NCBI GenBank assembly: GCA_965153455.1
Contig: OZ234493.1
Coordinates: forward strand, 4,526,001 to 4,590,000
Direction of reading: 5' to 3'
Source of the DNA: Sphagnum compactum
Taxonomy: Eukaryota
DNA length: 64,000 bases
Shown: piece after piece, positions 2,693 through 27,391 of the stretch
How positions within the stretch are numbered: position 1 is the stretch's first letter
How the letters are laid out: the number at the start of each line of letters is the position of its first letter
Notes under the pieces: model-generated
Database searches by the model: none
Told to the model about the DNA's origin: nothing
The model's input: the letters and a program-made list of their open reading frames with translations, nothing else
Translations under genes and position numbers: made by a program

Positions 2693-3981
2693 CTACTTGA
2701 CACATTGGAAGCCCTTGCAGATGCCAAGCCAGATTGCAAACAAGATTGCACAGACAACAGCATCAAGAATCAGAACCAGCTTCACATTGTTCCACCACAT
2801 GCGGTGAGCATGAAGCCTTGCACTCCTACTCTTTTGCAGATGGTGGGTTGCTTCTGGTGTGGAAACACCTTCCACCATGACCTCAAGTTTCTGACCCTTC
2901 TCCAATACCTTGCCACTGTTCTCCATCATAATCTCCTTCACCTCAATTACCTGCACAAGGTTGTCAACTGACTGTCAACTGGGTCTTACTTGTAAGAAAA
3001 CCATCTGACACATGACCATGTAATTCAGAAAATCCAGCTATGTCAAGCATACTATGATTTGTTTCAAACCTCAGCCCGCATTAGAGTGTTTGGTTCTGCA
3101 ACACACATCACTCTCCTCAAATTTTAAGAAATATTTCCATAGGCCAAAACACAACAAAGGAATCCATAAGCAGATGGACTAAGTCATCAGTCCCTCATGA
3201 CCAAGATAACTCCAGAAAACACAGTGAGAAGAACAGAATCTTCTTTTTGATGTATGGAGGCAACAACTCTCTCCTTCAAAATAACAAGCTGAATAGTCTT
3301 AGATATGGAGCCTTCAACTGTACACAGTTTACTCACCTGATCCTTGACCTTTTTCTTGTCTGCCTTCCCTCCTTTCCCTCTTAAGGGTGAGAATCGAAAT
3401 CTCCTCTCTGACTTCTTCTCAGAAGCTCGTTCATGCTCTACCCGCTTGTGATTGTGATTGACATTGTGGTCAGATATGGAGACTTCAGGTTGCCCAGAAT
3501 GTATGTATGTATCATCCTCATACTCTCCATTCTGTTGTGCTAGAAGTTCCTCTTCAATTCGGTCAACCTCCTTCTGCGGCACACCTACAAATGGTGCAAT
3601 AAGACGCCTAAAAACAGTAGAAAATATATCTGTCAAGCAATAAGGTTCCAGCCCCTGTCCATCCTGCCGCATCCCCTGGTCATGCATCATCATTTTGAAC
3701 TCATCCCTCACATCCTCCAGTAATGCAAAAGCTTTGTATTTGGTCAGAGCTTCATCAACAATGGCACAATAGGTGAATGGTTCTTCAATAATACAGCTGA
3801 ATATTTTCCTCTTGATCGTGTATGTGAAGCGGCTATGAAAAGCCGGCACTTTCTCCAGGCATTGTGCAGCAACCAGTGCCAGGTCCATACTATCAGCTCT
3901 GTGCTCTGCCACTATCATTGTGCCCTTAGACACCGAGGCATAGTAAACCAGATTGGTAATGGAGCCCACTGCCAGTCCCAT
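2693..3981 (-). CDS. Phytolongin / VAMP7-like longin-domain membrane protein, 2 coding exons (3981-3337, 2950-2693), ~300 aa
   Basis: ATG at 3981 (MGLAVGSITNLVYYASVSKG...CLEKVPAFHSRFTYTIKRKIFSCIIEEPFTYCAIVDE, a longin domain of the phytolongin type). GT donor at 3336 (CAG|GTGAG) and AG acceptor at 2951 (TGCAG|GTA) join KVKDQ to VIEVKEIMMENSGKVLEKG in phase 0. C-terminal TM segment VLILDAVVCAILFAIWLGICKGFQC, then TAG at 2693-2695. Probable 5'UTR intron ~4307-4520. Confidence 0.9.
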
Positions 3982-6900
3982 TCCCAAACCTCCTCAGCTT
4001 GCCTGAATCTTTGGATACCCCTTTCTGTCTTATTAATGACAATCCAGATCCTTCCCCTGTTTCCTTGCATATGAATCAGGTCGATGCAGATCCCCCTATC
4101 TCAAACCGTGACACTCAACAGTGAGCCTAATGAGATACACTCCTAAGGTAACGCCAGTTTTCTACACCAAGGATCTGGTTTTTTTCTGCTTCTTACTCAG
4201 CACTTTTTTGCAGCACATCCAATACTTGCGATCATCTGTGATGATGAGAGCCTACACAACAAGCCTCTAACGTTAGTCGATCTTCACCTTTCTGAACATC
4301 ACCTGACTGCAAATAAAACAAAATTTAGGTTGATGTCCTTGCTGTCTCACAACCAAATTGGAAATCGAAAAAAAGCTCCTGCTAATCCTTGAAGAAATCT
4401 GAAACAATAGCCGGAACATTGCGTGCGTTGTTCCCGGGGATAAATAAGTAGAATGGAAGAAAGGCGAACTGACAACCTGATACCAAACGCACTTCACAAT
4501 AAGAAACAAACGCGTTTTACCCTAAGAAAAGAAAGAAGAAACAAGACTTCAAGAGCAGTCCCGCAAGCCATCGTGCTTCTTAAGAAACCATCTTTCTCCG
4601 CACATCCTCCTAACCCCAGGCTACTCCTTCTCCTAGCAATCCGCTTGTGAAAAGAAAGCGAAGAAATCCAGACCAGAACCTCCACGAAAGAAAGCTCAGA
4701 AAAGAGAAAAGAAAGAAAGAAAGACCGACCTCAAAAAAGACGCCGAGCACAACTTTGCGGAAACAGGATGATCACGCTACCGAAAACGGCGGCACGCGAA
4801 GAAGAAGAAGAAGAGCAGCGCTGCAAAGAGAAGGAGGACATCATTGTCGTCGCACAGGACAACACCGGGGGCCCAAGAGTTTATAAGCTAGAAAGAAAAT
4901 GGCATAGAGAAAACAAGGGGCAAAAAAGGATCGGTGCGAAGAGGAATTCCGAAGCAACCCGGATTGCATCACAAGTCGCTGCAAATGCAAATGGAAGCGA
5001 GCGAGCGAGAGAGCGACTAAAACACACTTTGTTCCGGTATTGCAAGCGACTGACTGCACTCGTCAGGAGAGACGGAAATCGAACGGACGGACGCACTGGG
5101 AAGACGAACTAAACAAAACTCAGTCAGAAATGAACGGGTCTCTAATTGCCATCCGACGGCTCAAAACCGGAGTGCATATCTTATCGAACGATAGAAGCTA
5201 TGGGGGGAGAATTGAACTAACTGGCTAACAAGTCGGTAGCCATACCATATATGAAAGTTTTTTTATTAAAAAAATGCAAAGGATCCTTCTATATTCTTAG
5301 CTATGTAATGGAACTTATAATTAAAATCTGGTCACTTGGAATTTTATTTTATTTTATTTTATTTTGTTTTATTCAAAATCTGGCGAATTTGAGCCATTTT
5401 TTCCGATGAAAAAAGTCCTTTGTGTATAGGTCAAAATCATAGTTTTCAAATCAAAATTTGATGAAAATTTGCCAGTTTAAAAAAAAAATTCGCTGGACTG
5501 TAGGAGTATGAATTCGCAAGCACCAGGAAATATGGAAAGGTTGAAATTTCAGTCCCACATAAATTGTACATGCGACCAAAAGAGAAACTAAGCTCACTCA
5601 AGGAAGGGATCCAATATCATCCAAAATCTAGAAACTCAAGTTGAACAATGGAAGCTATGTTGGGAGGGGGTGGGGAAGGTCGAAGTCAATGAATAACAAG
5701 TCAATAAACTCATTAGCAATCCAAAATTAGGTCTAGGAGAAGGATTGGTCTTGAGGTTGGTCATTCCAAGTTTCAAGGTGCTCAGGATGACTTAGTTAGC
5801 GAGTGAGTTCGTAAGCACCTAGAAACGTGGGAAGATTGAAATTTCGGTCCCATGTAAGAGCATCTCTACCGATGCTCAGGATGAGTGAGGTTCATCAATC
5901 CCATCCGGCGAAAATTCACTGGAAGCCTGCTGGGACCCTGGTGGAAAAATGCACAGCTTTCCGAGCCCTCGGAGGCGCTCAGGAGCAGTCTAATCAACAC
6001 AGTCAAATCTTGACTGCTCCCTGTTTCTGATTGGGTAAATAGTTTGATTGGTCCAAGTGGGGTTGTTGCTACTAGTAGTGTACCACCTACTTGTTTCAAT
6101 CTCAGTTTCAGTTTTATGGGTGAGGTTGGAAAAAAGTTAGTAAGTAAAACTTGGATGTGAGAAATATATGTTTGCAGAGTCACATATTGAGCTTTTGGTG
6201 GTGGAAATGCTCCAAATTGTGCGTGCAACCAAAAGACCAGCCGTTCTCTTATGAGAAGACCATGACTTTACATCATTTTTTTATTGTTTTTTTTTTTCTC
6301 TCTCTCTCTCTCTCTCTCTTTCTTGTCATTTCAAATTGAAGAGGGTATGGTGTCTTCCTAAATGTAGGTAAGATTCGTCTTCCATGACTAAAGATTTCTT
6401 TGAAAATATTCTATCTGACTATGGACGACAAATAACAAAGGAAAAAAAATCTTAAGGTATTTTACACTCTCTCTTAGTTATGGATTTATTTATTACATAG
6501 GTAGAATCCTTAAAAGGAAACCAATAGACTACAGTGTAATTAACTAGGGACAGCTTTCTTTTTTTATTTTCCTTTTCTCCGTCTTTTTTATTTATTTTCT
6601 GCTCTTTCCTTTACCTGCGCTTCCTATCCAACACTAAAAAGAAAGGTCAAGGTACAAGAGCAACAAAAATGGTCTGTATACCGTACTTTGGATGAAGTAC
6701 ATCCTTCAAATGGGTATAACCAGACCTTCTCTAAGGCCAAAATTTTACCTTCCATTAACTAGGGTAGGGTATCAATATTTTTGATCTCCCAATTCCAATA
6801 CATATTTCAAGTCCCTGGGTGTGTGCACATTAGGGCTAGTAGGTTCAACCTTAGACATTGCTAGAGCCCAAAACTCGGCCTTCAAGTCATGCTAGGGCCC

Positions 6901-7432: not shown

Positions 7433-8533
7433 AAGCACCAGACCCTGCTACCATCCAATGCACCAGACCAGTTGGACCAGACCAGTTTCGGTTGTCAAAA
7501 GGGACTAGGGTGTTCTTAGGAAGGGCTATTAGTCGAGGCCAAAAATAGTGGCAGCCATTTGACTGCTGCAAATGAGGAGTCGTCATCACCTGTCAGCAGA
7601 TGGTACTTGTTAGAAGAAAAGGAAGACGTCCAGAACTCTACTTACTGCCCTGAAAAAAGTCTCTCTTGAGGTGCCAACCAAGGCTGACCCAAAATGGGTT
7701 CATGAAAGTGCATGTGGGTGTACCCTCCTCAGTACACAGCTTCTTTTTTTGCTTTTAGGTCCACTACCAATCAATAGGTATGATTCTGATTTTCTTTTTG
7801 GGTGAGCAAAGTGCAGAGGTGACAAAATAAACAAAGTAGCTCAACCACGAAAGGCTCTGTCCTGAAATAATATATTACATTTATAAATGTATTATGAACT
7901 CATGGGATAAGAGTTTGTTGACTTTACTACCAAGGATTTTGAATTTTTTTAAAAATAATTTTGTAGTAAGAATTTTTTTTAACCCTTTTAACATTCAATT
8001 TGCATACTTGAAAATTCCAACCATAGTTTCCATTTCTTTTTTCTTTAACCATACAAATGACTATAAAGTTGTAAATAATAATATTGTGTCAAAATTCAAT
8101 TCAAGTTTTTCCAAAAAACAGTTCAAACATTCTATCGTAATGTGCACAAGCTAAAATTAAATATTTAGATGTTTGAGACAAACATTAATAATGAATGGAT
8201 ATCATTTAGATGAAAAGAGTTTGGAAAGTTATTCATTTAATTTTTAGTCTCATTTCATTTTCAAATTTAAAATTTTGACATCTCTTGTAATTTTTGTTGT
8301 CACATTTTGGCTTTAGGATTTTCCACGAAAGGTGTTCTGTTTTTGTGCTTGATGGGTGAACATGTGGATAAAAAAACATCCAATTTTTTTTTCATATTGT
8401 GATTGATAATAGTGATTTTTTGTTTGCACATGGTCCATGAAAACTAATATAAATAAATAAATTTAGGCCACAAGGTGCCACCATTTTGGATGTCACTAAT
8501 TAAATGAAAAATGCAACATTCATACATTGCACT

Positions 8534-10880
8534 TTAAAGAAATGGAAACGATAATGGTTTTTTGTTATATATTGGAAGTGCATTTGGTAATTTGAATGCA
8601 ATATAAATCGGTTTGTGAAATCTAGCCAATATGTTTTTGTTACACCATATCATTCATTTATGGGGACATTTGCTCATGGTCTAGTTGAGATCCAACTTTT
8701 GTGGTGTTTTCACTAAATTGTGATTTTAATTTGAACTTATCCATTAAATTCAATAGTTCTTGTTTTTTTTCCATGGTTGTTGTCTTTTAGAATGTCAACA
8801 TTAAAATCTCCCATTATGATGATTGGACAATGTTCAAGAAAATGTTGAATTATAATTTGAAGCTTGTTTAGGAATGTAAAAATTGAACATGAATGAGCCC
8901 TATACATACATACAATATGTATTAATTTTTGTGTATTAATATTAAAAAATATTAGTATATATTCTGAACCATCATTAGTTTTTGTTTTAAAAGAATCTAA
9001 GTGCATGCGTATGTCATACAACATCATTAACCCATGACCATGATGGATTGAAATATATGTAAACTTCGATTAATTTATAAATTTGTGCACATCTATGGTG
9101 TATTTTTGTTTCTATAAGACATAAAATATGAGACACTTGAAGGTTATGATCATGGTTGATGTCTTCATAATGTTGGCGTAAAGAATTTGTTTTCAAAGCT
9201 TGTATAATTACATGAAAATTATGTAATTTTTTAATTGAAGAATTAATGGTGTCCAAGTCATAATTGTTTTCAATCTATTCAATTTTATATGTATTCTTGG
9301 ATCCACATTAAAAAATTCATGTTGGAAAGGAATTAACAAAAGTAAATTTTCTTTTGTTCAGATGTGGGATAATGTTGTATATGTTAACCCATGTTTTTAA
9401 AACATCAGTAGAATCAAAAGCCAATTTATCTAATGATAATCCTTGAGAATGAATGGGTGTAAGTTGAATTGGAATTTGAATCCTTATTATGATAATACCA
9501 ACTCTTATATCTTTGATGATAGGTTCAATTGGTGTCCATTTTGATTTGATGTTGTTGTTGTAATAATGATTGTATTTTTCTCTTGTCAATGTTCCAATTT
9601 TAAAATTTTGAAACATTATCCATATGATGGTTTTGTCACAATATGTTGTTGATGATTTTAAAAATGTTATGAACTCCATTCACAAGACCATCATACATTG
9701 CATAATTACCAACATATATATTCTTATTTGAATTTTCAAATGCAAACCTATAGTTTTTTTTGGATCATTTTAAAATTTGTAAGATGGTGAACATGGTTGA
9801 TGATCAATACCCATTGCTTTGAAATTAAATGTGGGGCCTAATGTATTATTGAACACACGTTCATTGCTTTTTGTACAAGTTTATTTATATAAAATAAATA
9901 TGGAATATTAAGATTGTTGGGTGGTTGTCAATTACAAAATGAATTTATAAATTGAATATCTTTGTATTTTTTGGTTACAGTGCAAAATTTGTTCAAAGTT
10001 TTTATGAAAACCATGTTAGATTACCACATAACTATATTTAATTCATAACATTAGACATACATTTACCAAAAAGTTAGTGCTAATGCATTAACATTATCTT
10101 TGATATTTTGAAAGATCCAACTATCATAATTCACACGAGGTGTTTAATAAAAATCACATGTCATGATAACATCCACACCACTGAAGAATTTGTTTTGAAT
10201 ACATTTTATGGACCTTAACTTATTATCTATAACATTCAACATTCTAGCACCAACAAATGATATTTTATTTATCACAACAAGTTGTAATTGTTCATATCGG
10301 CATGTAAACCTATTTGATGAATTTGTTGATAAGTTTGATAAACTGGATAAGGATTGTTGGACAAGTATGTTCAATGTTGAATGTATTGTTAAACCATCAG
10401 TATTGAAGGTAGCTTCACCTATTGATGCCATAAGTAAAACCTTGGTTTTTGTTAAGTCAAAAGATATGTTTTTATTATATAATCGTAATAATCTTTGAAT
10501 TATATATTTCAATGTAAAAGTTCTACTAGTTCCAACACCCCCTGTAAAAAATAAACAAATTGGTATATCAAGGTATAATTATTTTTTATACATCATGTTA
10601 TCAAATATTAATCTTTTTTTTTCATTTAATTGTCTAAGCAAACTACGATATTCAAACTTTTTCCATCATCGTAGAATATGAAGATTATGTGAAAATTTCA
10701 TCTAATAAAGTTTGTGATTTCTAATTTGATACATCACGTGATTGAATCACAAAGTCAAATCATAAATCATAATGTTCAATATTGATTATGTTTATAATAG
10801 GATTACATGACATGAATCATTTACTTCATTATTTATGTCATCATTCCAAATGTAATTAGATGCAATGGTTTTGATTTTGA
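8534..10880 (-). mobile_element. Degenerate Helitron/Helentron RepHel 3' part: PIF1-family helicase followed by AP (EEP-family) endonuclease
   Basis: Helicase motifs: ICLFFTGGVGTSRTF (Walker A, ~10515-10560), GLTIHSTL, LVVINKISFV (degenerate DEISMV), FFSGVDVIMTCDFY, RIQIPIQL..IHSQGLSL (~9440-9490). Endonuclease motifs: SHILCLIETK, IVCMYR, PIIIMGDFNVDIL, GSQLDH, YWLDFHKPIY (~8600). Many stops and frameshifts. Confidence 0.85.
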
Positions 10881-10904
10881 ATATATTGAATCATTCATTT
10901 CTTT

Positions 10905-13900
10905 TGGTAGTTCAAAATAGATTTAAGCTTAGAAATTTCATCATGTTAGGCGGAAAAAACTATTAAAGTTAAAGAATGTCAAAGTTAGAGAAGTTGTAGG
11001 AAAACAAATTACAATCTGAGGTTAAATTATGAACTCAATAGTGGAATAGAGCTTTGTGGAGTCAACAGAAAAATATGGAAAAATAATTTAAGTTTGGGGA
11101 TTTTGTTCTATGTTTCCAAAAGGGAATAAATCACATTTGGGGAAGTTCACCATAAAATGGTTTGGACCATATAAGGTACAATATGTATTACTTAATAATA
11201 CAATTTTAGTGGTCACACTAACTAATTTTGAACCTAACCCTATGTTGGTTAATATTAACAAGCTAAAACCATACCAATTTATTGCATCGAAGGTGCAAAA
11301 TTATGAGGTACAAAAATTGATTTACTAGGAGGAACCATAGACTACAAATCAACCATAGAATGGAGTTCAAGAACAAAGTGGTGTGGACAAAGATGAAGAT
11401 GACAAAATAACACCATGGCAACTATTGATTCATGAGAACAAATCGTTGTGTAGGACCACAGATAAATCTAATGAGTCATTAGAAAAATCAGCTGACTTAG
11501 CTAATAAATCAAATGATGATATTGTTAAGTTGGAGAAGATTACAACACACCTAATAGAAATGATGAAAGATGAAAAAGGAGATGGTGATGATGACATTTG
11601 GATGAATAAAAAAGGTCAGAATGCATCTGAACCATTGATAAAAATTAATTATTTCCACAAGGATGTACAGGAGCAAGGCCATCATGAAAGGAATGGGGCA
11701 CGTGAATAAGACAAGCAAATTAATGAGAAAACGGCGGGCTGCCTTAAATGAAAAATTAAGAAAAGGGAATGGCTGTCAAGTTTTCTTGCATTCAAAGTTG
11801 TTCCAAAATGACTTTGTGTTTTTAAAGGGTTGTTACAATTTGAATGAGGATAGTGCAATAGATTAATTAAAAAGAATTGCAAAAGACACATAAGCACAAA
11901 AGGTTATCGAACATGAGAAATTGCATAGAATTGAAGAAGAACATTATGCGACATAAGTTCTTGCAAGACAGAAGGGAAGTTGGAAAGGCAGGCTAGCAGA
12001 CCAATTTATAACATTGTGTCGTTGAAAGCAATTTCACCTTTAGCATCACCATCGTCATCCAAGTGTGAGGAGGGGAAATGATTCACAAAATAAATTAATG
12101 AAGCAGTTAAATGTGCAAAGGATATTGAGGAGACAATAAAACAAATGTTGGAAAGGCTACGAAACAAAATTTTCAAAAAACAAACAAGAATGGCAATGGG
12201 ACTTAGTGCAACAACACATGAATTTGTGGAGATCCAAGATTCCAACGAAGAAAACAAAAAATGGTGTTGGTGCGGTTCGGAGAATTTTTGAAATTGTGAC
12301 AAAAGTTGGTCAAACCACAAAAAATCCATAAACGATGGTGCAACCACAAATGACAAAGCACCAACTCATGATTCCATCATCATCTCAATCAGGTTTTGCA
12401 AACTTACCATATTTGTACCAAATGAAGATGGATCAACAAACTTTGGCAAAAAGGGGCATTAAGATCCCAAATGAAAACAAATATTTCTTTACACTAATTA
12501 AATAAAGTTATTAAAAGGAGATGGAGAAATTAAAGATGTGGAAACAAATGGGGAACATAGAATAGGCCTAGCCCCTAGGCTAGTAAAGTGGGGTTAGTCA
12601 CATTGCTGGCCATTGACTAGAAGCAATCAGACCGTGATGCATTAGTAAAATTCTTGATCAAAATATTTGTGATCAAAGGATGTGAAATTTATTTTGGCAA
12701 AAGGAATATAATGTATGTCATTAGTAAGTAGTTAATAGCTAATGCTTTCAGTGTCTATCAGAGTGGTTATGTTGAGGATCCTAAAGGACAGGTGACCAAA
12801 GCCTTAGCAAAATAGTTGTTGTACAAACATAATATCAAAACCCTTTACACCAATGGAATGTTACGAATTGTAAACTGTCAATTTGTGTTAGATATTTAAC
12901 TATTATATATGTGATTTATCAAAGGGAAAAGGTAAATTACATGAGTAATAAAAGTGCACTAACATTCATGAAATTTGAGGATGGGATTGAGCACAAATCA
13001 TATTCAGTAATTTGTGCAATGAGTTGGATAGATGGACCAAGATGTGGGAGAAAATGCAGACAAGAAGAAAGCAAGAGGACAAAAAAAAAATTGTCATTCG
13101 GCATTGGTTCTAGAAAGATTATTCAAGTATTTTTTCAAGAGGATTTTGAGGTTACATTGAAAAAGGCAATAGACACTCAAAAGAAATCTAAGAGGTCTAA
13201 GGAGAAGTTATAACATGTTTTGGATAATAGAAAGGGAGTAATAAAAGGTCAATCTCCAAAATCTTTAAAGCAAAGGAAAAACACATCTAAAGTAGGGGAA
13301 GGATTAGAACAATGAAGAAAGTCGAGGATGTTACGCGTCAAAAAGTAATGCGTGGAAATACCAGACCGCTAGGGGTTGCAATTCTAGGAATAATTATTCG
13401 ACATGTTCCTAGCAAACCACAAAGACATCAAGGCTCAAAACATGAGCAAGAAAAGAAACAGTAGTCATAGTATATTAAATCATAAAGGAGCATATCACTT
13501 CAAGTAACAACAACATTACAAAAGCAAAATGAAAAATTGCATTATGATGTCATGGATGACTTGGATGATTTTCATGCTCAGATGGCAATCCATGAGGAGA
13601 CTTCAATGGAGGAATGACTCCCACAACCACATATGGACCAACAATAATCACGTTCATTTCAGGAACAACAAATGGAAATACTAGGATCAACAATGCATGG
13701 TTTTTGACCACCTGCCATAATGCTACCACAAAGTAGACCAAGATTAACAGAAGGACATGTGTTGGATATGGATTTGGGTTTACATATGCGGGACAAGGGA
13801 ATGTCATCAAAAGATACATTTCAAAAGATCAAAGGGGAGACACCACATAATTTGACACCAAAATATGTAAAGGAGTTAGCAAAAGAGGTATTGGGTAGTA

Positions 13901-15256
13901 ACAAAATTGCTGAAATGTTTCAAGCAATGGCAATTGTGAATATGAAGATGGGTAATCTAAGTTTGGAAGTCAAATCACTTAAAACTAAATTAACTATAGT
14001 GGAAGAAGATAAATAAGGATTGTTAAAACAAATAAAAAAGGAGTAGCAAGGATATGAGAAGTACAGATGATGTATGCAAATTTGGAACAAAAAAAAGGAG
14101 ATGGAAGAGAAAGCCAATGTGAAGATGTTGCAACTAGCCACATATAATAAGGAGATGAAAGGAAGTTGATGGAATTTCCAGAATTAAACAATGAATGCAT
14201 GGAGCTAAGGCAAAAGGAAGAAGCATGGACTTGGGTGTAAACAAAATAAAGTGAACAACTTGATTACCTTGTCAAAACTAGAACAAGTAAATTTAAAATA
14301 ATAATAAAACCCATTATAGAATTGTGGAACATTGAATGTTTTCATTTCAATGACTAAATATGATATTTGTTTACCATAATGTGCATTGATTTTCATATTT
14401 CAAACTGTAAAAGTAGGTTTTTCAAAATACAAGTAATTTTTTACATCTATTTTTCATTGTGGGCTTTTCGTTTCAAGTAGGTGTCAAGTATGTTTTTACA
14501 AAAAAGAAATAAATGTTTTTTTGATGACACACTGAAAACATATGTTGATCTTCATTTCCTAACTTATTACATATCAATTTCATTAATTTTAAAACCAAAA
14601 AGTAGGTTTGAACACACATTTTTCAATCAATTTCAAATGTACTTTTTATCTACATTTTAAATTCATTTGTTTTTAACTTTCTTAGAATTAGATTCTTATA
14701 AACTTAATAGAGCCAACTAATGTTACTTGACACATACTTTCACCTAATTTGATGTTACTTTATGGTAATATATGATAGGCGCAGGGTTAAAGTGGAGGTC
14801 CATCTATTTTTTTGGTATATTTTATCTTGCTTTGACCCGCTTAAGCAAACCATGCATATCATAAATCATTAATAGAATACAAGCATAAGGTTGAAGGCTT
14901 GGAAAGAGAGAAACAATTATGGATGTAGTAGGAATAGGAAACCAAAAAACAAACAATTGACAAGATGATGGTATAAATTCTACAAATGAAAGGAGTTCAA
15001 TAAGTAGAATGTAGAGAAAGCCAAGGAGCAAGTAGTTATGGAGGTAAATGAATTAAAATAGGAGATGCACAAAACCAAATCAAAATTGGATGATTTGGTG
15101 GAGAGGGGTAAGGATTTGGACCCAACATATGTTATAAATAAATTGGAGGAATATGATGACTTGGTATAGTATTATTATTCAATGCTGCATACCAAAAAAC
15201 AAATGGATGCTGCCAATGATGAGTTTGATGAATGGTGGGAGTTGGTAGAAGTTTAG
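10905..15256 (+). mobile_element. Ty3/gypsy LTR-retrotransposon fragment: integrase C-terminus plus a long degenerate downstream accessory ORF
   Basis: FKFGDFVL..FPKGNKSHLGKFTIKWFGPYKVQYVL...VNINKLKPY (GPY/F integrase tail, 11090-11330). It is followed by ~4 kb of purine-rich, stop-riddled ORF-like sequence with homology to the second gypsy copy at ~52.5 kb. Confidence 0.8.
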
Positions 15257-16244
15257 TTCCAAAAATATATGTAAAACAAATTGGCTACACACAAAAGGGA
15301 TGAGGCATAGAAGACATTTATTTGCCTTCAAGAAAGCCTTTCTAGATTTCATCTATTACAGTCTAGATAATACATGACCATCCAGTCCAGTACAGGAGGT
15401 GGAGGAAGCTAAGTATAGTGGAGCAATTAAGAACATACAATAAGAATAACCGCATAAGTTAAAGGGAGGAGGATAATATATTCTAATTGAGATATCTAAA
15501 AAACAAACATAAATAGCTTCACATCTAGAGACAATGGTCATAACTTATGATATGGGCACATAGAGGGAACCGATTGAAGCTAGGGAGCAGGGAGTGAAAC
15601 ATACACAATAACAAATTCAAAAAGGTATAATAATAACACCACTACTTGATAATTCAATTTTTCAAATGTGTAGAAGCTAAAGGCCATACAAAATCACAAA
15701 TTGAAGTGCAAGTAAGAATACTAGCAATTTGGGAGGAACAGACCAAGCCACAGACGATTGACATAGTGACCTAAAAGACAACTCACTATATATGTGATGC
15801 AATTCATTGTAATTCAATTGCAACTCTATCAAAACAATTCATTTTCAACTACTATGCAACTCCATTATAACTGCACTCATGATGTCATGCTAACATCATT
15901 AATTGTCATCCATATATTAAAATTCAAAGAAGTTCTTATGAACAAAGGAATGTGATTCCAGAAATAATATATAGGAGTAACTTTAAGGACTGGGCCATCA
16001 GCCAGAGGTACAATGCAGGCATAATTCCCCCTGCCTGCCCACAGGGGTCAGACACTAGGAGCCTGAAACAATCTTTGAGAAAAAAAAGCCTTGGGATCAG
16101 ATGAAGTGCAAGGATGGTGAACCTTTCTTTAAGCAAGGTAGGATCAGAGTGAAGGCCATGAAATCATTGAGGGATCCAAGATGGACACTGGCAGCACCTG
16201 CTTGATTTTATAACTAGAACATGCTGTACATGAAGTCATTGTAC

Positions 16245-17116
16245 CTTTCACTTTTTGCTCATAATGCACACGATCACGCATCATCAGAGCAGCAGCCTCA
16301 CCATTCAAAGGATCTGTTGGATTTGGATACGGTAAGAGTTGTGGAAGGAAAACCTCAAACACATTTATTAGGTCTGCCCCAAATCCACCACACAGCAGTC
16401 AAGCCCCATAAGCCTCTCCCTGTATTTAGGGTACAAGGGCTTCCACCAAATTGCAAATTCAAATGCAGCATTGCTCCCAAATGAGCCCCTTTGAGCAACT
16501 GCTGCTCCAGGCCAAGAGGGATGCACAGGTCCCAATGAGCATTTCAGAATAGGCCTTATAGATGCTCCCTAACCTAAGATGACCACTGCATTAGATGTCC
16601 ACATGACAGGATCCATGTCAATTTGTGGATGTGCGTAATAATAGATGCATTGCTAATAAACTTCCTTTACACATCACATAATGGTATGTCAATATTGAAA
16701 CCAGTTACGAAAACAGAGCATCAAAAAGAGAATCTGGCTCCAGAACCTCTTGCTTGCATAGCGTCAACACTGGTCAGTTATAACTTACACAAGAAACAAA
16801 CTGTTCAATTTCCACTCCCACCTCTTCAGATAGCTTGGAGTGCTTGAAAACTCAGTACAGGTCTTATAAGAAAGAAAAAAAACACAAACCTGTTCATGAT
16901 GAGCTCAGACTTGATAAATTTCTTAAATAACATTAGTCAGGTGGATTCAGTTTAAATATCTATACTGTACCTGCAATGGCTATGCAGGTTGAACCTAATG
17001 CCTCCAAATGCCCTAAGGGTAATTGTTTTTGAAATGCCTTCAAAAAGAACGTCAAGAACTCACCAAACATGGGACTCCAAGTCTGATTGATGACATACAA
17101 GCACACAGAACCTGGC
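16245..17116 (-). pseudogene. Two-exon fragment of a ubiquitin-conjugating enzyme E2 (Arabidopsis UBC4/5/6, UBE2H-like)
   Basis: Exon 17116-17064 (AG..GT) encodes PGSVCLYVINQTWSPMF. Exon 16373-16245 (AG..GT) encodes (D)[42 protein letters not shown]. Family consensus is [37 protein letters not shown] found no N-terminal or final exon in the window. Confidence 0.8.
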
Positions 17117-20100
17117 CTGCAACCCATCAACCATATGCAGCATTTAGGACTTGCAACTCAGCTGTCAACTGTGCACATGTCCACAGAGGCACGCATACAC
17201 CTCAAGTAATCCTGTCCAACTGACTCACATCTTTAAGTTCACCAACATACAAAACATTAACATAAACACGCAACCATATTCAGAAAAAATGCACGGGGTA
17301 CTAAAACTGATGCAACTCCAAGGTGACAACACACATCAGATCAGCCCCCAGTGCACACCAAATACTCTGAACCAACAAGATGGAATCACCAACTGAAAGA
17401 AATTGGACAAACCAAAAACCTTGTAGCAAACAGAACCTCTAGAATTTGCAGAACAGCTGGCATCATCAACATCTCCCAAGACCAAAAAAAAGATTAGGAA
17501 GACTCCTCAGGACTTAAGGTTGTGGATCAGAAACATGCCCAGTCCAGTAACAGCAGGATGTCCTATGGGAAACTAGTAAAAACCCTACTAGAACACATGC
17601 AATAGCACATGGCACTATGAAGATATTTGGACATACATTTATAATTTTTTCAAAATATTGATCTCCATTGCCCATTATGATTGTTAATGATGGTTCAAGA
17701 TTGTGACATGTGGCACAATAACAAATTGTCACATGGCATATTAATTGTATATTGAATTTTAAAAATATATATATATATCTATTTTTGTAGCCCGTACATA
17801 ACCATAGGTAGGTAGGTTGATAGGTTTTAAAACCTACATACCTATGTATTTACTTAAGACCTACCTACCTACCTAAGTAGGTAAAAATTTACAACCTACT
17901 TATTTACCTAAGACCTGCCTACCTACGTAGGTAAGTAAATAGGTAACAAAACACAAAACTAAGTGAACTAAAAATTATTAATAAAATTTCACTTTTTAAT
18001 TTTATGTTTTGCCTTTAAGTTAAGTTTTTTTGAGCTTATCCCAAAATGGCACATTTATTTTAATGTGAGAACACAAAAGAACATGTCTTCTTTATTTAGT
18101 TTGTAACATGGAATTTGAAAACAAAATATATGGGTTAAATGTTTTAGTTGTTCTTTAGTTGCAAATTGAATTGCAAATTGAGTTGTAACTATAGGATAAA
18201 TCGATCAATGATTGAACATTGAAACAATCAAGGCAAGCCAAATCCAAGGGGAAGGCTCCATAGTTTTTTTGTGTTTAAACAAAACTTGAACCTCTCCTAT
18301 CAACATCTGACGCACTAAATATCGTAAAAAATGGAATAAAATTGAAATAATTATAGCCCCCAAAACTAGAGGGGGTAAAAAATTCAAAAAAAACAAACAA
18401 CTGAACGTTATAAAGGTCGAATTCCTTCTATGTTATTTTGTTGCTATCAAATTTGAAAGATGATTTGTAAAATTTCAAATGGTGCTCCTGTAGCACTTTA
18501 AATTGTTTTAAATTAATGAGAAATAAGAAAGTTATGAGGTTTGAAAGTTCTGCGTCCAAAGAGAAAAATAAATTAAAAAAACACGTTTTGTAAATTGGAA
18601 ATTTGTTTTTTCTTGTTATTTTTTATTACTCCTTTTCCTTTGCATTTCAAAGATGATTTTTAGAGCTTGAGGTAATGATTCCATAACATTTTAAATAATT
18701 CAAAATGAAGCACATATGGTGAAGATATAAATAATTATTCGGTCATAAGCATGTGATTGATGATGGGTCGATTTACTTTACAAATATTTTTTCACATGCT
18801 TTGTGCTTGTTTTCCAATATGTAAGTTATACAATTAAATTAATGTTTCTATGATAATTAAATATGTGACTTAATTATTTAATATTTTTAGTTGTTTGAAA
18901 TAGTTATTTGTATTTTTTTTAAATAATTGATTATCAAATGATTAATCATCTAAATTCATATAATTAATCATTAATCATTTGAAATTTTGAAAAAAAATGG
19001 AGTTATTATAATTAATTAATGAACTAATTATATGAATCAAAATTATTTATAATTCATAATAATTAATATGTACTAAATTGTTGAATGATAACTCAACATT
19101 AATATTAAATATTAAAAATGAATTTGGTAGAATACATGAAGGTATAAATAGGCATATCTATATGTACATAAAGTTGAATTTTCAATATAATATACATGGG
19201 TGCAATCAAAGTATTTTGTACACACTTGTTACCTTTTTTTCTACTTGAAAACACCCAAAAAATAGTTTTAAAAACTATTAGCCTTCCTTTAATATTTCAA
19301 CACAAATGAAATTTTTACTTTTTTCGTGGGCATCTCTAGCTTAGCTTTTCAAAGAAATTTGTGTCATATCATTTGAATTTGAAAAAATACCCCACAAGTA
19401 TTCCCAATATTTTGTCATTTTTCAAGGGTTAGGGATGATTTTAGTTATAAAAACAAACTTTATTAACCAAAAACATTATATTGGAATGTTCACCACATCA
19501 ATATTGAAGTGCATTAAAAAAGTAAAATATTTGCAAAACCAAATCACCTATTTTCAAGTACTTCAATTTTAATTTTCAAGTTGCCCAAAAAGTTTAAGTC
19601 CAATTCAAATACTTGCAAGTAGTGTAAAAAAACATGATTATAACAATTTAGCTTTTGAAGTTCATGCAAACAAGAGTCAAAAAATAATGTGCCCTAAAAT
19701 AATATTATTATCCTCATAAAATCATCTACTTGTTAGTCCTTTCATATAGATATCTCAATATTTTGTTGCTTACACTACTTTTTGTGTATATTTTACCATG
19801 CTTTCATCCACACATTACTTTTAATTTCACATCTAAATTAAGTATATGTATCGAAATAATTAATTAGTTAATGAATTTAGATAATTAATGAATTGGTAAT
19901 TATTGATGAATTAATAATTATTTTAAATCATCGATCTAATTCATTATGAAATATCCCCAACTTCGATAAATATTTATCCGATTAATATTTAATAAGTAAT
20001 TAATATTTTCCTTAATTATATGAATTACACGTATTTATTCATATTAATAGTCAAATTATTGAAATAATATTTTTTATAAAATATCACATATGATTATATC

Positions 20101-21464
20101 CTTATTAAGTTATAAGTAGATATATTATAGTCATAACATGGTTGAACAATAATATTTGAATAGTGGTGCATTAATGGTCGTATTAATTGTATCAACAAGA
20201 ATCATAGTCAAAATTTAGTTGCAAATGTATCCCATATGGATGGTGGAAATGTGAACACATGGCATGATTGCATATATATACATTGTACACTAGTTGCAAC
20301 ATAGTTGTTGCTTTAATGTCACATTTGCAATAAATCTAAAGTAGTTGCCAAATGTAACTTTTTAAGAAATCAAACATGGTTAACTACATATGTATGTACG
20401 ATGTGTATAAATTACCAAATAGAAAACTCATTTTCAACTCATTTGCAAATGTAATAGAACTAACTAATTTTTTGACGTGACAATTTATTCATTAATACAC
20501 CATATTTATAAGGGGATAGTTGCATAATAGTTGTAATACCCAAGGGATAATTGCACAATAATTACCTATGAGTATTTTTTGAGTTTTAGTTGCAAGGTAA
20601 TGTGGTTTCAACGAATGTGATTTCTCATAGTGTATTCACATTTGTGGGGACATTAATAACATTACATGCATCCTATATTGCGTGTAGCCATATAGTTTAT
20701 AAATTTGAGACATGGTGAAATAAAATGTTTTTTTTAATTGTATCAATTTTTGAATTGATGGAATGATTTTGTTTATGGAAATTATATTCAGTACTTGATA
20801 TAAAGGAGGTTTATTTTCATTGATATTAAGTGAACAACTTGCACATATATATAATGTGGACCTAGGTTCTATTTTAATTTGAAAATATGTAGAAAGATGT
20901 TTTAATAATTTGTTTGAAAAACATTTAAGTTGTTTTTAAAAACATAACCTTTCATAACAAAAACGTGGAATTATGGGAACATCTTGAACTTGTTTATTAA
21001 ATTTCAATGTATATTGATTTTTTTTCATTTTCCTTTATATTAACAGTATGTTTTATTTTATCTGATTGAACCTCATGTTCCACAAAAGTTTGTTGTCTAA
21101 GAATTGGTTATTTACTTTCTTTTAGAGTGCATACACTACATGATGATTGAATTTTATCATTTATGGAAGATTCATCTTATTTAATATATATGTTTCATAT
21201 GATTCACAATTTATGATCTTGTTCTTTTAATATTGAAAACATGTTAATGAATTTTTGATGTTTTTTCAAAATAAGTAAGATTTGCATAAACATTTTATAG
21301 TTCAAAAATATTACTATTATAAAGTTCCTGATCAAATATTCTCTTTTTCTTTTGTGTTATATTAGGATCAACAATTAAATATTGGAAATGTTCCATTTGA
21401 ACTTTAGGTATGTTTTGAATTTTGGTTTTAAACATTAAAATGGACGGATTAGGCAAAATAACCT

Positions 21465-21842
21465 TCGTAAATATTTAGCTATCCAAACTATTTCAGTGAA
21501 ATCTCCCCCACAAACCTCCCATCATAGCACATAATGTCACTTTTTGTCACATATTAATGTCATACTTTGATGTTTTTTTTTAAAAAATTAAAATTTAATT
21601 CTCAAAAACGACATTGTTGGGCTATTTCTGTATTCACTAATAAACATTCGTTTAAATGTGCCATGTTAATTTGCCTCAATTGAAGAGATGATAAATGATT
21701 ATCCCATAAATAATATATCGAATCAAAAAGACAGTTGCATGTTTCATATTTGTACATTGAAACCAAACGGAAAACATATGAATGTAATACATGTTCAAAT
21801 GGTGAATCAACAAGATTTGATGAAGTTGTTTCCATTATCATG
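21465..21842 (-). pseudogene. Degenerate OTU-like cysteine protease domain, probably transposon-borne
   Basis: ETCNCLFDSIYYL...SSLQLRQ resembles the OTU catalytic motif (DGNCLFRS/A...LR). Downstream, across a frameshift, GGLWG/DFTEIVWIAKYLRR (~21465-21520) resembles the OTU WG..E motif. Confidence 0.6.
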
Positions 21843-22049
21843 AACTTCAATTTAATCCAAATACATAAATAATAAAAATTACCTTCCTCACACATACACA
21901 TTCAAAATGATAAGTAATTAGTTATTCACTAGAAGACTATTTACATTGAATTATTTTTAAAAAATTATTTGGATTGAAAATTTATTTATTATAATAAACA
22001 ATTTCTTGTATATTATATATATATTTTATTTTATTGAAATAATTGTATT

Positions 22050-22650
22050 AAAAAGTTGATTGTACTGAAAACTACTTAAATTTAAAATTTGATTAGATGA
22101 AAAACTATTTGTATTAAAACGATGCTTGGATTCAAAAATTGATTGCATGGAAAAATTGCTTGTACTAAAAGACTAGTGTTTGGTTCAAATTTTGCTTGGA
22201 TGGAAAATTTACTTGCATTAAAAAAATGCTTGGATGGAAAACTACTTATACCAAAAAAAACGTTTAAAATTTATTAGATGGAAAAAACACTTGCACTAAA
22301 CAATTATTTGGTTTCAAAAATTAATTGGATGAAAAAAAAAATTGTATTAAAAAAATGCTTGAATTCAAAACTTGATTGGATGGAAAAACTGCTTGCACTG
22401 GAAAACTGCTTGGATTCAAAATTTGATTAGATTCAAAAATTCCTTATAGAGAATTACTTGGATTAAAAATTTAATTTTATCAAAAAAAATCTTGTGTTGA
22501 AAAATTACTTACATGGAAAAACTTCATATACTAAAAAATTGTTTATATTTTGCTTACAATGAAAAACTATTGGTACTTAAAATTATTTTCATTGAAACTA
22601 CTTGGATTCAAAAACTAGTTGTATTTAAAAGGTGCTTATATTGAAAAGTC
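22050..22650. repeat. Degenerate ~21-23 bp minisatellite (GAAAAACTRCTTGCATT / TGCTTGGATTCAAAA units)
   Basis: Many recurring AAAAACTACTT, TGCTTGGAT and TTGGATGGAAAA units in tandem. Confidence 0.65.
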
Positions 22651-22759
22651 TTTCCAAACATCACAAAATACGATATAAAAAGTTTTCATATATATGTCTA
22701 ATATTTGTATACTAAAAGTAATTATAAAAAGGTTGCACAAAAACTATAATCAACAACTG

Positions 22760-24601
22760 TATTGTTTAAGAGGGCTTTTGTTCAACTCATCAAAGAAAAG
22801 CTTGCATTTCACATTACACTAGACATTGTCACTAAAACTAATTGCCATAGGAGTAATCAACCCTTCAACATTCAATTTTTTTTCTATTTCTTAATGTATG
22901 TTTTTTTAGAAACCAACAAGGGCAGCTCTGGGCGACAAATGAAATTTAGCACAGAAACAAGGAGTTGAACTTGTTTTGAACAACCCAAATTCAAAAATTC
23001 AAACTTTATCATATGCACAATTGTTTCAAACCATTTTCCCTCAATGGTCAATAATATAGGTCCATCATTGGTTGTAATGGAACCATGAAGGACACTTGAT
23101 TTATGAACAACAAACATTACAATGAACATCACTCGTTGAGCAAATGATGACATTTGCTACATGACAATTTCCACACGCTTTTTGGAATGGAAGTGTAATA
23201 GGACTAACTATGGACAACACCTTGGTCCTTGAAAAATAAAAACAAAATATGTTAAAACAAGAAAATAATGAAAAATGTGGGAAAAATAATGTTTTATAAA
23301 AAAAAATTCACAAAAAAATTGAATTTTTTTTCCCCTTAAGAGGGACACAATTAGGTGGTCTATCAATTGTTTTTTAAAAAAAATTCCCTGGGTGGTCACT
23401 TGACTGTAAATAAATAAATAAATAATATAAATGGTTTTTTTCCCCTTGGTAGAGACACAATTCATGGCTACCCAATTTTTTTTTTAAAAAAGGTATTTTG
23501 TTTCTTAGAGACACAACTAGGTGGGCATTCAATTGGGCCCTAAAGATTCAATTAGATGGCCACCTTATTGTTGCCCCCAAAAATAATTCTTGAAGGACAA
23601 AATAAAATGTTTGTTTGATTAATAATATAATATAATAATATTATTGTATCCTATTAATTTTTAACTATTTTAAATATTATTTAATTATCTTAACACTTTT
23701 CGTTATTTTTCTAAGTATAAATGACCTATAGATGAATATTTGGCACCATTGAATTTTTTTCTATGAATTTGAAAAAAAAATTCAAAATGTCTTCGAAAAA
23801 ATGAGATTTAAAAAAAAAAAACCTTTCTTAAGGGAGGTCTTACAATTGATAGTTTATTGTACAACTTGAGTATACAAGTTTGAGTAGCCTCATCAACCTT
23901 TGTGAGAATTGTGTATTGTTGTGTTCTCAAATATCGATCTCCTTTGGATGTTGTTGCCATAATTTTGATCAAGACCATAGCACATTAGCCTCCATTATAT
24001 GCTTCAAGAAGTTGTTCATATTTTGTTCTAAAATTATTGCCAAGAATAAGAACATCTTGGTTGAATTCACCTTTTCCATTATAATCAATAATTATTTTTC
24101 ACCTTTGTTATTCCTTTTTCCCTTTACACCAACAATGATGACGACAATAGTAGCAAAGCTCCAACTTTGAAGATAACTTTTGAAATTTCTAATGGAATCC
24201 ATGTGGAAAAACATGGGAGCCAACTCTAATTCAAAAATAGTGATTGGTTACATAATGGTCTTGACTCAATTGTAATGACAACAGGCATGTCACCTTTCTC
24301 AATCCCCTTTTGGACTTTGACTCAATGCAAAAAAATTCAACCTTCACAAACATGTTTTTTGCAAATACTTCTCATGCATATCTATATGAGGTGATTTGAC
24401 TTTGAAAATGATTGTGGTCATAACTACCCTATCCAACAAATAAAAATGCAAATATGTATAACCCATGCTTCTATTTGCAATTCAATCAAAGGAACCATAC
24501 TTATTAAACACCTTTGCCCCAAACGCAACATCTTTAACTCCAAAATCCAAATTATCCATCGCAACAACTAATCGAACTTCTTTCACTAAAACAATAGCCA
24601 T
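22760..24601 (-). pseudogene. Degenerate RPA70-like ssDNA-binding (multi-OB-fold) gene, typical Helitron cargo
   Basis: ATG at 24601: MAIVLVKEVRL..YLHFYLLD..MFVKVE..EKGDMPVVITIES..FATIVVIIVGVKG..MVLIK..KGDRYLRT. Probable intron ~23228-23822. Then KACGNCHVANVIICSTSDVHCNVC (CxxC..CxxC Zn ribbon) and VLHGSITTNDGPILLTIEGKWFETI, like RPA70 DBD-C. Stops and frameshifts present. Family assignment is by eye. Confidence 0.6.
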
Positions 24602-25127
24602 TACGCAAAAAAAATAAATTTTAAAAATCTTACCAAAATGAATTTAACAACCAACAAACAAAGAGACTTAACAAACACATAGTTGCAAAAACACACACTT
24701 GAAAAAACTCAAGCTTGCAAAAACCATCAATATAAAATGAAAACTAAATCAAGCACAATGTTCGTGCTAGCTAGAAAGAGAAATAACAAACATACAATGT
24801 AATCTTTAGTATGGGACAAAAAAACCCTAATTGAAACCCTAAACCTAACCTAAACTTTTTACTAGTGTTTTTTAGCTTTAACCAATTTTGATTACATGGT
24901 TGATTACAACTTAACAATAAATAAACATATTCATGGTTCAATGACTAAATTATAGTTTAATAATGAACAAGGTATCCTACGAATTGTAATTATGCAATCC
25001 ATAGGTATATCAAAACCTAATTGTTTCAACTTGGATTTGAGATACAACACTTTAACCCTAAACTTTTTTCCATTATTTAAATCATTATTTTCATTTTCAC
25101 TTCAATATATATCTATTTGGTAAGTTC

Positions 25128-25166
<39 letters not shown>

Positions 25167-27391
25167 TAAACATCAATTTTTTGGTCATTTGCATGAAAAT
25201 TTTACACAAAAATTTGAAATTTAATTGTTTTTCACTTTATGGTTAAATGTATTCAATGTTTGATTTCAAACAAGGTTTTGTTCTTTTTTCTTAAAATCTT
25301 GAAATTATTTTTCTTTGTTGAATTTTTGCCATGTTTGGTGTTGCCAAAAAATGACATTAATTTTTAAAAATATTTTCTTGGGAAAACATCCTTGTTAAGT
25401 CACCATATTATGAAAAAGGAAAAGAAGGGAAAAAAAGGGAATATCCCTTTTTTTCCCCACCCAAGAAATAACTCCTTTAACCTCCCAATACCATTTAATA
25501 AAACTCCTTTATTTTTCTAGTTCACTAAAACCCCACATCTAAAACAAACCCTTTGAAATAAATAAATAAATAAATATTTAACCTATATGCTCTCCTCGCC
25601 CAACTTAAAAAAAATACTCATACCTAAATTTATCCATTTAGCCTACCTTTGATTCTTTGGCCTTTATACCCACTCAAAAGGTGTTCCCCACAATGTCTCT
25701 ATAGGATAAAGCCAATAATTAATTAATTAATTATTACTTGAAAAGACTTGACTTTTGTGATCTTCAATTACTTCAGTACATGGGTTGGTTCAGCAGCAAG
25801 CAAGGTGCCTAATAAAATTTTAAAAAATTGTCATTCATGTTTAACAATAAAAATAATAATCTTTTATAATTAGGCATTATATTAAATAATGAAGCGAGTT
25901 AGTGTGGTTGAAAGTGTTTTTCTTGGATTTTCAACATGTAAATATTTTTTACATTTTTTGGCAATTCCAAAAATATTTAATTAATGCCTAACTAGTTTAA
26001 TTACTATGGTACAGATGAAATGGCAACCCCCTTTGAAAATTGGGAGCCAAGGAATTGTGATGACTTAGCCAAATTTGTCATATATAAAAAGATTTAGCCA
26101 AATTTTGCTATATGTTAGAGAGGAAAATAAAATAAAAAAATTGAACCCCACTGTATTTTGGTGACATGCTAGAACTTGTAGTCTAAATGTGATAATTTCA
26201 AAAAAAAATCTTGAAATATGGTGACTTTGGGTCATTTTTCCAAAAAAATTATGTTCCTATGTCAACAACTACAACTATCACTATCACCACATATACAACA
26301 TATAACATATAAATATCCTAAATAGTACACCATATCCAAATTTTTCAAGTCATCAAAAAGTGATTTGAAATCACACAACCTAAAATTGTATCAACAAAAT
26401 ATTCGAATTTTGTTCACACTTGAATTGGTTTGAAATAAAACTTAAATAGCTAAGTTAACCCAGTTTACCCTTAAGTAGCTAGGACCTAACCAAGCAACTA
26501 AGCTAACACACCTCACAAAATACATAATGAAATTTTGCTTCCAAACCTTTTTTTTATAGGTTTTGGTTCATATGCAGTGAAGTGTGTTTTTTCCCTTCCT
26601 GTTGTCACCAAAAAGGAAGGGTCCAACAGCAACACGACCCCTCTGTCTAACTCACTCAGACAGAATGTGAATGGGTATCCGTCTATCAAACCCGCGGCAT
26701 GACAATGGCATTAATCTGAGTCCAAAGCTTCTGTCTCCTGGTTCTACCAAAACCCCAATGATAGGCCCACATTACTAATGCAAAGTCTCACTCCCTGGAT
26801 TTCCATAGACACAGCTCCAACTCTCACAATTCGGCAAAGCAGAACTTCAGAGATCAAAATTCATTACTCATAATTTACTGAATTCCCCGACAGCGCAAGC
26901 TGCCTCACTCCAGTGCACTCATCAAAAATCAAGCAATCCTACTTAGCTAAGTCGCTGGCGCAGCGAAAAGTTTCAACAACTCAGCCAAGCTCTCCACGAA
27001 ATAGACATATAGGGCTACACATCCAGACTCTTCTGAGCTCATCTAACATCTGCAGCTCTAGTCTTCCATCTCTGACACAAAACTAAAGACAAAAACTCAT
27101 CTACAACATCCGTCTTAGCCTCTTGCTACTCTCTGAACTTCTCCTCCCTTAAGCAATGCTCATCAATGATCCCAAAAAAACTACTTAGTTCTAACACTCT
27201 CCTCAAAAATCAGACCTTCTAGTCTGGCTCTCCATGCATCCTTGGGCTGTGCTGACCCCCATTGCGCTACCTTCCACCCCTTTTCAACTTGCTCTCCTCC
27301 ATAAAATCATCCTCTCCTCTTCTTCTGTTGGCTTCCCACACAAGCTTCATCCTTCACCTTTCTGCCGTATTTTTTCCTCAACAGCTCATCA

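Follow-up and report, generated by a model that had tools for sequence, protein, structure and literature searches.

A dead, interrupted Helentron in the moss Sphagnum compactum and evidence for a plant family with RPA70-like, OTU, PIF1 and endonuclease modules

Introduction

The subject of this paper is a decayed Helentron in a 64,000-nucleotide stretch of the genome of the moss Sphagnum compactum (GenBank assembly GCA_965153455.1, contig OZ234493.1, positions 4,526,001 to 4,590,000 of the forward strand; hereafter the window, G000:C1:4526001-4590000 in our coordinates). Close counterparts have been described in animals. The Helentrons of mite, mosquito, Drosophila and Nematostella and the HINE/DINE-1 elements, in the account given of them by Thomas et al. 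(2014; PMC4067079), share with the moss family an open reading frame (ORF) for Rep, PIF1 helicase and AP endonuclease, a separate RPA70-like ORF and an OTU domain. Also shared are subterminal inverted repeats with a nested 5' inverted repeat, a T-rich target used without duplication, a serine in Rep motif 2 and the presence of short deletion derivatives. The same account includes a mite Helentron with both RPA and endonuclease, lists RPA and OTU as Helentron cargo, and treats an F/Y-x-R signature before Rep motif 2 as diagnostic in most cases, not as the definition of the group. The roles of the endonuclease and OTU are called undetermined where PMC8788227 touches on them. The moss family differs from the animal elements in its plant host, in a spliced RPA-like gene too divergent for the Pfam RPA models, in an OTU that forms the N terminus of the transposase ORF, in a narrower target (TTTRTT), in a weak 3' palindrome and in the lack of F/Y-x-R.

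Such elements are also on record from plants. In its treatment of the HLE2 group, the HELIANO survey (Li et al. 2024; PMC11417382) counts 13 land-plant species with HLE2, finds the group in each of the five Bryopsida mosses that it sampled, lists 555 HLE2 for Sphagnum magellanicum and places land plants in the endonuclease-rich subgroup b. An earlier reading of the window from its letters alone (the sequence-only reading) had held that Helentrons are mainly described outside land plants, a view that this record corrects. The HLE2 of HELIANO and the moss family are alike in short inverted ends, TT sites, the DUF6570 marker and an RPA upstream of RepHel. One named S. magellanicum element, HelenSM92, has autonomous copies of about 16-18.6 kb by their listed coordinates and is described with a GIY-YIG domain, unlike the moss family, which measures ~10 kb and carries RPA-like, OTU and endonuclease modules. 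RPA together with endonuclease also falls outside HELIANO's text on the subject, which limits HLE2 RPA to subgroup a. The family may be among HELIANO's unnamed HLE2 calls, and no description of a plant Helentron family with RPA, OTU and endonuclease was found in the literature searched, with Repbase and most subscription papers outside that search. Its novelty is modest: the four-module combination is known in animal elements and is now shown in a plant family.

Canonical plant Helitrons (HLE1) resemble the moss family in being rolling-circle RepHel elements with an RPA70-like helper gene. As characterised in HELIANO's comparison, HLE1 have 5'-TC and CTRR-3' ends, an A|T target, an RPA that is usually downstream, and neither endonuclease nor DUF6570. 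The moss family departs from HLE1 in its ends and its target and in having both the endonuclease and DUF6570. The sequence-only reading had joined RPA cargo of plant Helitrons to a Helentron; with RPA described as Helentron cargo in PMC4067079, no such hybrid is needed.

The family and the linkage of its modules

The sequence-only reading saw four degenerate domains in minus-strand order (RPA70-like OB folds with a Zn ribbon, an OTU-like protease, a PIF1 helicase and an AP endonuclease) and proposed that they are pieces of one element family. A six-frame reading of the window bears out the domains, their strand, their order and their degeneracy, the coding stretches being broken by stops and frameshifts. 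The genome-wide comparison of copies that was suggested with it (382 Mb, 702 contigs) supports one family in which the RPA-like, OTU, PIF1 and endonuclease modules occur together with an HUH Rep and shared termini. We consider it very probable that a single, old insertion of an autonomous Helentron (HLE2 with endonuclease), with a native length of about 10 kb, accounts for the region. The window copy is dead and interrupted, with no sign of a host role. Its features are collected in Table 1.

Table 1 Features of the Helentron copy and of the DNA nested in it (window coordinates)
Feature	Position	Strand	Basis or remark
5' terminus, 10-bp subterminal inverted repeat GGCTCTGTCC and nested inverted repeat	25704..25713	-	Homology start in 8 other copies
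RPA70-like exon 1 (two OB folds, DBD-A/B-like; second predicted with low confidence), broken	23823..24601	-	ATG at 24601; GT donor common to other copies
RPA70-like exon 2, CxxC...CxxC, broken	22766..23227	-	Colinear in copies; AG acceptor
OTU-like protease domain, start of transposase ORF	21460..21835	-	Cys motif present, His motif lost
Transposase linker, CxxC motif, first part of DUF6570	20634..21459	-	Next 2,180 bp of family missing
Nested high-copy non-autonomous element, CACTA...TAGTG ends, with further inserts	15784..20632	-	Genome matches
Host ubiquitin-conjugating (E2) gene, intron-containing 3' piece	15919..17606	-	Inside CACTA-type element
Foreign decayed repeat	10948..14300	+	No family homology; right border approximate
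PIF1 helicase domain, broken	9300..10660	-	Pfam PIF1; P0161 homology
AP endonuclease (EEP), transposase C terminus, broken	8582..9220	-	GDFNVD and LDH motifs kept
3' terminus, subterminal repeat GGACAGAGCC (7853-7862), weak palindrome, CTAC-TTGTT-type end	7830..7862	-	12 3' ends tabulated

The helicase fragment has at least 150 matches in the genome (150 of 150 scored, from 338 candidates), and a Rep fragment taken from another copy has at least 151; stop codons interrupt most of the helicase and Rep matches listed. Twenty other copies were retrieved, 10 picked via the helicase and 10 via the RPA-like gene. In 6 of them all seven coding modules, each covered to at least 38%, follow the order RPA exon 1, exon 2, OTU, DUF6570, Rep, PIF1, endonuclease, and Rep is held by 14. 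For five of the ten copies picked by the RPA-like gene, neither Rep nor helicase is present in the fetched stretch. The possibility, raised by the sequence-only reading against itself, that RPA and OTU are never linked to the PIF1-endonuclease unit is contradicted by position: a helicase place lies within 20 kb downstream on the same strand for 11 of 38 RPA-like places, against 0.13 expected, and 2 of the 38 show another arrangement (the 38 exclude the window's own locus and second pieces of split places, and were compared with 134 helicase places). One near-complete copy measures 10.1 kb, and a deletion derivative of 2.7 kb lies on G000:C2 at 9.03 Mb.

Two observations on repeats belong here. 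A decayed tandem array with a 17-bp period occupies window positions 22040-22650, between the RPA-like gene and the start of OTU, and recurs in other copies of the family. A local cluster of repeat units is found at G000:C3 18.05-18.28 Mb (L153, L154, L156, L158, L187-L195), where inverted pairs of some units carry the 5' end of the Helentron and five units are without it, a pattern of local duplication after insertion.

The transposase

The helicase is identified in the window itself, as the sequence-only reading had it: positions 10147-10578 match Pfam PIF1 (E 6.7e-14), and the window helicase shows 44% and 32% identity to residues 1388-1919 of P0161. This relative is an intact chain of 2096 aa with OTU (E 9e-4, sub-threshold), DUF6570, Helitron_like_N, PIF1 and Exo_endo_phos domains. 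In the case of the endonuclease, window positions 8740-9069 match Exo_endo_phos_2 at E 6e-4, under the curated cut-off, and a less decayed copy reaches E 1e-5. Its place directly after the helicase was read correctly: in L083 a natural stop-free frame of 280 aa spans both, and the two lie in a single ORF in P0001, P0161 and L086.

The calls of OTU and of the RPA-like gene rest on relatives, because the window's own frames match neither Pfam family; its OTU, RPA and DUF6570 frames returned nothing relevant in Pfam. The profile searches thus upheld PIF1 in the window, while OTU and RPA came up sub-threshold in relatives. The OTU-like protease is called by homology. Over 55 aa, the window piece shares 44% identity with the N-terminal domain of P0161, and the OTU of a sister copy is 39% identical to P0161 over 143 aa and matches Pfam OTU at E 0.02, sub-threshold. 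Both the Cys motif (G-N/D-C-L/F-F) and the His motif (HF/YEP) are kept in several copies and in P0161; the window copy has lost the latter to a further deletion of ~400 bp, seen as a gap against the copy C5_4.95M. An OTU search against PDB sequences returned only a viral OTU, at E 0.6.

The middle of the transposase can be read from sister copies, which match DUF6570 (E 2.5e-8) and Helitron_like_N (E 7.5e-5). A majority read from 8 copies and the 3' part of the window copy gives a near-continuous frame of DUF6570, Rep, PIF1 and endonuclease. Its Rep motifs are FFITFT, EFQxxGSxHxH and YxxxYxTK, which are also retained copy by copy, and motif 2 has S (not L) after G in most copies. An intact element would encode a spliced RPA70-like single-strand-binding protein and a polyprotein of ~2,000 aa with the order OTU-DUF6570-Rep(HUH/Y2)-PIF1-AP endonuclease.

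Termini and target site

The element is bounded by subterminal repeats. GGACAGAGCC, the complement of GGCTCTGTCC, lies ~30 bp from the 3' end, and the target motif ATTATT occupies positions 25714-25719, just outside the 5' end of the window copy. The nested inverted repeat forms a 5' hairpin with a z of -2.0 in a less decayed copy, and one that is not significant in the window copy. Thirty loci were examined, of which 27 yielded a 5' end; exact TTRTT precedes 23 of the 27 (background 0.8%; R is G in 17 and A in 9), a count in which 4 of the 27 duplicate one site and for which the search query included 10 flank bases. At the 3' side, 11 of 12 ends read TTGTT and one reads TAGTT.

Empty sites of other copies show how the element is inserted. 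Two empty paralogues of C2_19.58M hold a single TTRTT-type motif and are exactly five letters shorter than the joined flanks, and TTTRTT is found in four of five empty paralogues of the C3 cluster. Insertion therefore leaves no duplication: host DNA supplies the 5' motif, while the 3' motif with G belongs to the element and forms its end. Taken together, the flanks and these empty paralogues, which belong to other copies, give the target as TTT(G/A)TT, used without target-site duplication. A target-site duplication of 5 bp can be rejected on two grounds: where the 5' TTRTT has A, the 3' motif of the same copy has G, and an empty site contains the motif once. The flanks of C2_9.02M and of the C14 copy yielded no empty site, and L046 and L033 gave no useful alignment.

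One of the two empty C2_19.58M paralogues is a host repeat copy in the window itself, at ~5886-6211 (motif near 5990). The 2.7-kb derivative in L068 is directly adjoined, from ~6447 on, by a repeat of the form TTRTT-GGCCTTGCCTAC...AGGCAAGG, also present in L160, L083 and L169, which resembles the 5' end of another Helentron family. A common target motif would make such elements stack.

The RPA70-like gene, selection and relatives

For the RPA70-like gene the sequence-only reading is upheld in exon 1, by DUF223 and by the fold of the homologue P0044, while the CxxC...CxxC motif of exon 2, read as a Zn ribbon, is present without a Pfam match. Exon 1 of a sister copy has as its nearest ESM Atlas clusters those of the DUF223/RPA70 first OB fold (score 0.94, 21 of 30 hits). 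A profile search with the RPA-like protein found 305 homologues, and 5 of 40 that were aligned match Pfam DUF223, at best with E 5e-5, sub-threshold. The window aligns to P0044 with E 3e-25. The AlphaFold model of P0044 is of low confidence (mean pLDDT 48.7); compared with 48,161 chains, it best matches RPA70 of U. maydis (Z 12.4, root-mean-square deviation (rmsd) 10.3, 175 aligned), and it matches human RPA70 with Z 11.9, rmsd 5.6 and 150 aligned, while its Foldseek matches to RPA70 have E values of 7e-6 to 3e-4. Tandem OB folds are therefore predicted, the first well supported and the second with low confidence, and exon 2 may add a third, Zn-bearing OB fold (DBD-C). An OB profile run against PDB sequences gave no relevant match. 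An OB protein of the liverwort Riccia sorocarpa, which points beyond mosses, is among the homologues (6 were looked up; the best 150 of the 305 were listed).

Selection offers a view of whether these helper parts mattered to the element. Computed between the majority reads of two subfamilies, the ratio of nonsynonymous to synonymous change (dN/dS) is 0.22 for RPA exon 1, 0.46 for exon 2 and 0.25 for OTU, and 0.24 for Rep, 0.26 for PIF1 and 0.50 for endonuclease, the last three with only 4 copies behind subfamily B. Copies compared with their own subfamily, a measure of decay, give 0.70-0.98. The between-subfamily values are low against those of decay; the helper parts were therefore constrained while the family moved, and have decayed since. 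By these ratios, the RPA-like gene and OTU were working parts, under purifying selection as strong as that on Rep and helicase. This is added evidence that they are selected parts and not passengers.

Relatives outside the genome give the linkage some depth. Of two metagenome scans, the first found no relative and the second 59 loci whose transposases are related. Among longer proteins, word-index searches for homologues came back empty twice, and a third search, run with a helicase alignment of 12 rows, yielded 6. The same OB gene stands at 9 of the 59 loci, upstream in 7 (three of them near-identical) and downstream in 2, and OTU is also found in L086, L096, L112, L113 and L128. L086 has an intact ORF of ~2,180 aa that runs from OTU to endonuclease in one frame. 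In a helicase tree of 58 sequences, which can only indicate a placement, the moss-type clade has support of 0.96 and is sister to a clade that holds an element with Herpes_teg_N, DUF6570 and endonuclease, a Herpes_teg_N-bearing pattern that HELIANO's subgroup descriptions assign to HLE2 subgroup b (PMC11417382). ESM Atlas neighbours of one relative are labelled cnidarian, rotifer, chordate and mollusc.

It is unlikely, given these findings, that the family is a recent chimera whose RPA-like gene was taken from a canonical plant Helitron (HLE1) or passively captured as host DNA. Such an origin would fit the ESM Atlas result, where the nearest clusters are mostly plant DUF223 proteins, the intron of the gene, and HELIANO's finding, in its text on HLE2, of RPA only in subgroup a and of endonuclease almost only in subgroup b (PMC11417382). 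However, the gene is under purifying selection like Rep, and homologues lie beside the same kind of RepHel-endonuclease at the 9 metagenome loci; the helicases there are 45-77% identical to that of the moss family, and the link is therefore old. Mite Helentrons, in the account of PMC4067079, hold RPA together with endonuclease as well. An RPA can accompany an endonuclease in plant HLE2, and surveys based on Pfam would miss an RPA that falls below the cut-offs.

A broader proposal can be put forward tentatively, as something possible rather than probable: non-seed plants may be home to an old clade of Helentrons, so far undescribed, that bear the endonuclease, a divergent RPA70-like helper gene of their own and an OTU at the N terminus. 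The latter two would be maintained by selection, and the target TTT(G/A)TT would be mirrored at the 3' end. If this is true, intact single-ORF members such as P0161, P0197 and L086 would allow a direct test of the roles of endonuclease, OTU and RPA. Some of these relatives have features of their own. L086 (8063-14605, 15406-16760) and L087 (6509-7860) hold intact transposase ORFs with the spliced RPA-like gene downstream, not upstream. L086 has two OTU domains and is surrounded by numerous repeats in direct and inverted orientation; among them, on the upstream side, are partial copies of the last exon of the RPA-like gene. The P0161 cluster contains several intact 2096-aa members on contigs of 7.1-7.4 kb, and P0197 is a 2277-aa relative with two OTU-like domains.

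The window copy and its interruption

Homology to the family begins at 25713 and ends at ~7830 on the minus strand, with both termini present, a larger span than the 8534..24601 of the sequence-only reading. That reading had also suspected a deleted Rep and later nested insertions, and here the evidence agrees with it. Family positions 861-3039 (2,180 bp: most of DUF6570, Helitron_like_N and Rep) are nowhere in the window by blastn or tblastn, and where they would lie there are 9.7 kb of foreign DNA. With Rep deleted, the window copy is therefore unable to move on its own. A plausible course of events is that a CACTA-type element landed inside DUF6570 and further repeats then accumulated, and that a deletion would have taken out the adjacent 2,180 bp including Rep.

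The nested element at the upstream side of this foreign DNA is one that we take to be of CACTA type from its terminal motif. Its 5' end has many matches (40 of 40 scored, from 546 candidates), and CACTA starts are also found in other copies; its 3-bp flanks are mismatched in the window, and loose ends occur at 20632 in three of four DNA runs. The E2 piece within it (1.7 kb) is 96.7% identical to G000:C3:23629480-23631156, matches Pfam UQ_con (E 5e-6) and sits at a point where other copies of the CACTA-type element run on uninterrupted. It is apparently a Pack-CACTA-like capture that is younger than the Helentron. The foreign repeat at the downstream side is, to our eye, probably a retrotransposon remnant, by a GPY/F-like stretch at 11110-11283; a Pfam search of 10948-14300 gave no hit.

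Several lines of evidence bear on the age and unity of the insertion. The two halves of the window copy have their closest relatives in one and the same subfamily, with best identities of 84-85% to C5_4.95M, C1_27.35M and C1_28.98M and a placement support of 1.0 in both trees, which favours one insertion. Each of the four DNA runs compared (organisms A, B, C and G) covers family sequence. A 418-bp contig of organism B reads across the 3' junction (7 mismatches, 8 gap letters), and the insertion therefore appears, by this one contig, to be older than the split of A and B. Run X12 shows a joint of 7964-26077, but these positions disagree with the termini, and we regard the joint as an artefact of repeats.

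Some observations weigh against the reading of the region as one Helentron insertion. An empty site for the window copy was not found, its 3' flank being single-copy, and a joint of ~7830 to ~25714 is not among the 15 listed of about 1,894 joints in the four DNA runs. The 3' palindrome has stems of 3-6 bp and -0.1 to -5.2 kcal/mol in 12 decayed ends, and the 3' hairpin is no stronger than shuffles in the 3 ends tested. Of the two published Helentron signatures near Rep motif 2, F/Y-x-R is absent, the family and its relatives having FF(V/I)(I/T)EFQ or YF(V/I)TEFQ in its place, and the OTU and RPA assignments stay under Pfam cut-offs. To these must be added the limits given above on the 5' flank counts, the subfamily B estimates and the P0044 model.

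The failure to find an empty site would also suit an alternative in which a truncated 5' half and a truncated 3' half come from separate copies and lie 9.7 kb apart by chance or through recombination between CACTA elements. The mismatched flanks of the nested element can be read in the same way, and truncated halves are common, as the RPA-picked copies without Rep or helicase in their fetched stretch show. Yet the two halves share strand and subfamily, stand in the right order, do not overlap and hold both termini, and with 134 places in 382 Mb the helicase is too rare for the two to be neighbours by chance. We regard two copies as quite unlikely and retain a single, interrupted insertion. The notion that the domains have nothing to do with each other, being decayed host genes or parts of various transposons that came to lie on one strand by chance, might appeal to the window's own OTU and RPA frames without relevant Pfam match and to the 9.7 kb of foreign DNA between the parts, but can be dismissed as next to impossible in the face of the colinearity and shared termini of many other copies and the single ORF of intact relatives, the co-occurrence counts across family copies having already refuted it.

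Proposed mechanism and significance

How an intact member would move can be sketched from HUH and rolling-circle biology. The motif TTRTT is found outside the 5' end, in host DNA, and again as the element's own 3' end, and Rep would nick within it, at TTR^TT or as much as two bases further along, the position within the last TT being unreadable from filled sites. This mirrored motif amounts to a concrete prediction for a Helentron nick site. PIF1 would unwind and displace the strand, which the RPA-like protein would coat and protect, and the strand would be joined into a new TTT(G/A)TT site with no duplication. Help in opening the T-rich target is a possible role of the endonuclease, and polyprotein processing or deubiquitination a possible role of OTU; both ideas are among the proposals of PMC4067079. 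With the moss family, what had been a remark on HLE2 in mosses within a genome survey becomes a delimited land-plant family with the full animal-type Helentron toolkit.

Other features of the window

The host gene near the element, at 2693-3993 on the minus strand, is a Longin/synaptobrevin gene by Pfam, an ordinary gene of plant type that agrees with a land-plant host. Small parts of the flank also occur in sequencing runs labelled moss metagenome, which points to a moss. Further along, 39538-41431 (-) and 59244-60653 (+) hold what we take, by eye, to be VIT1/CCC1-like and DnaJ-like host genes. At window positions 61666-61902, a 60-bp unit is repeated in tandem, its four copies being nearly perfect (95%).

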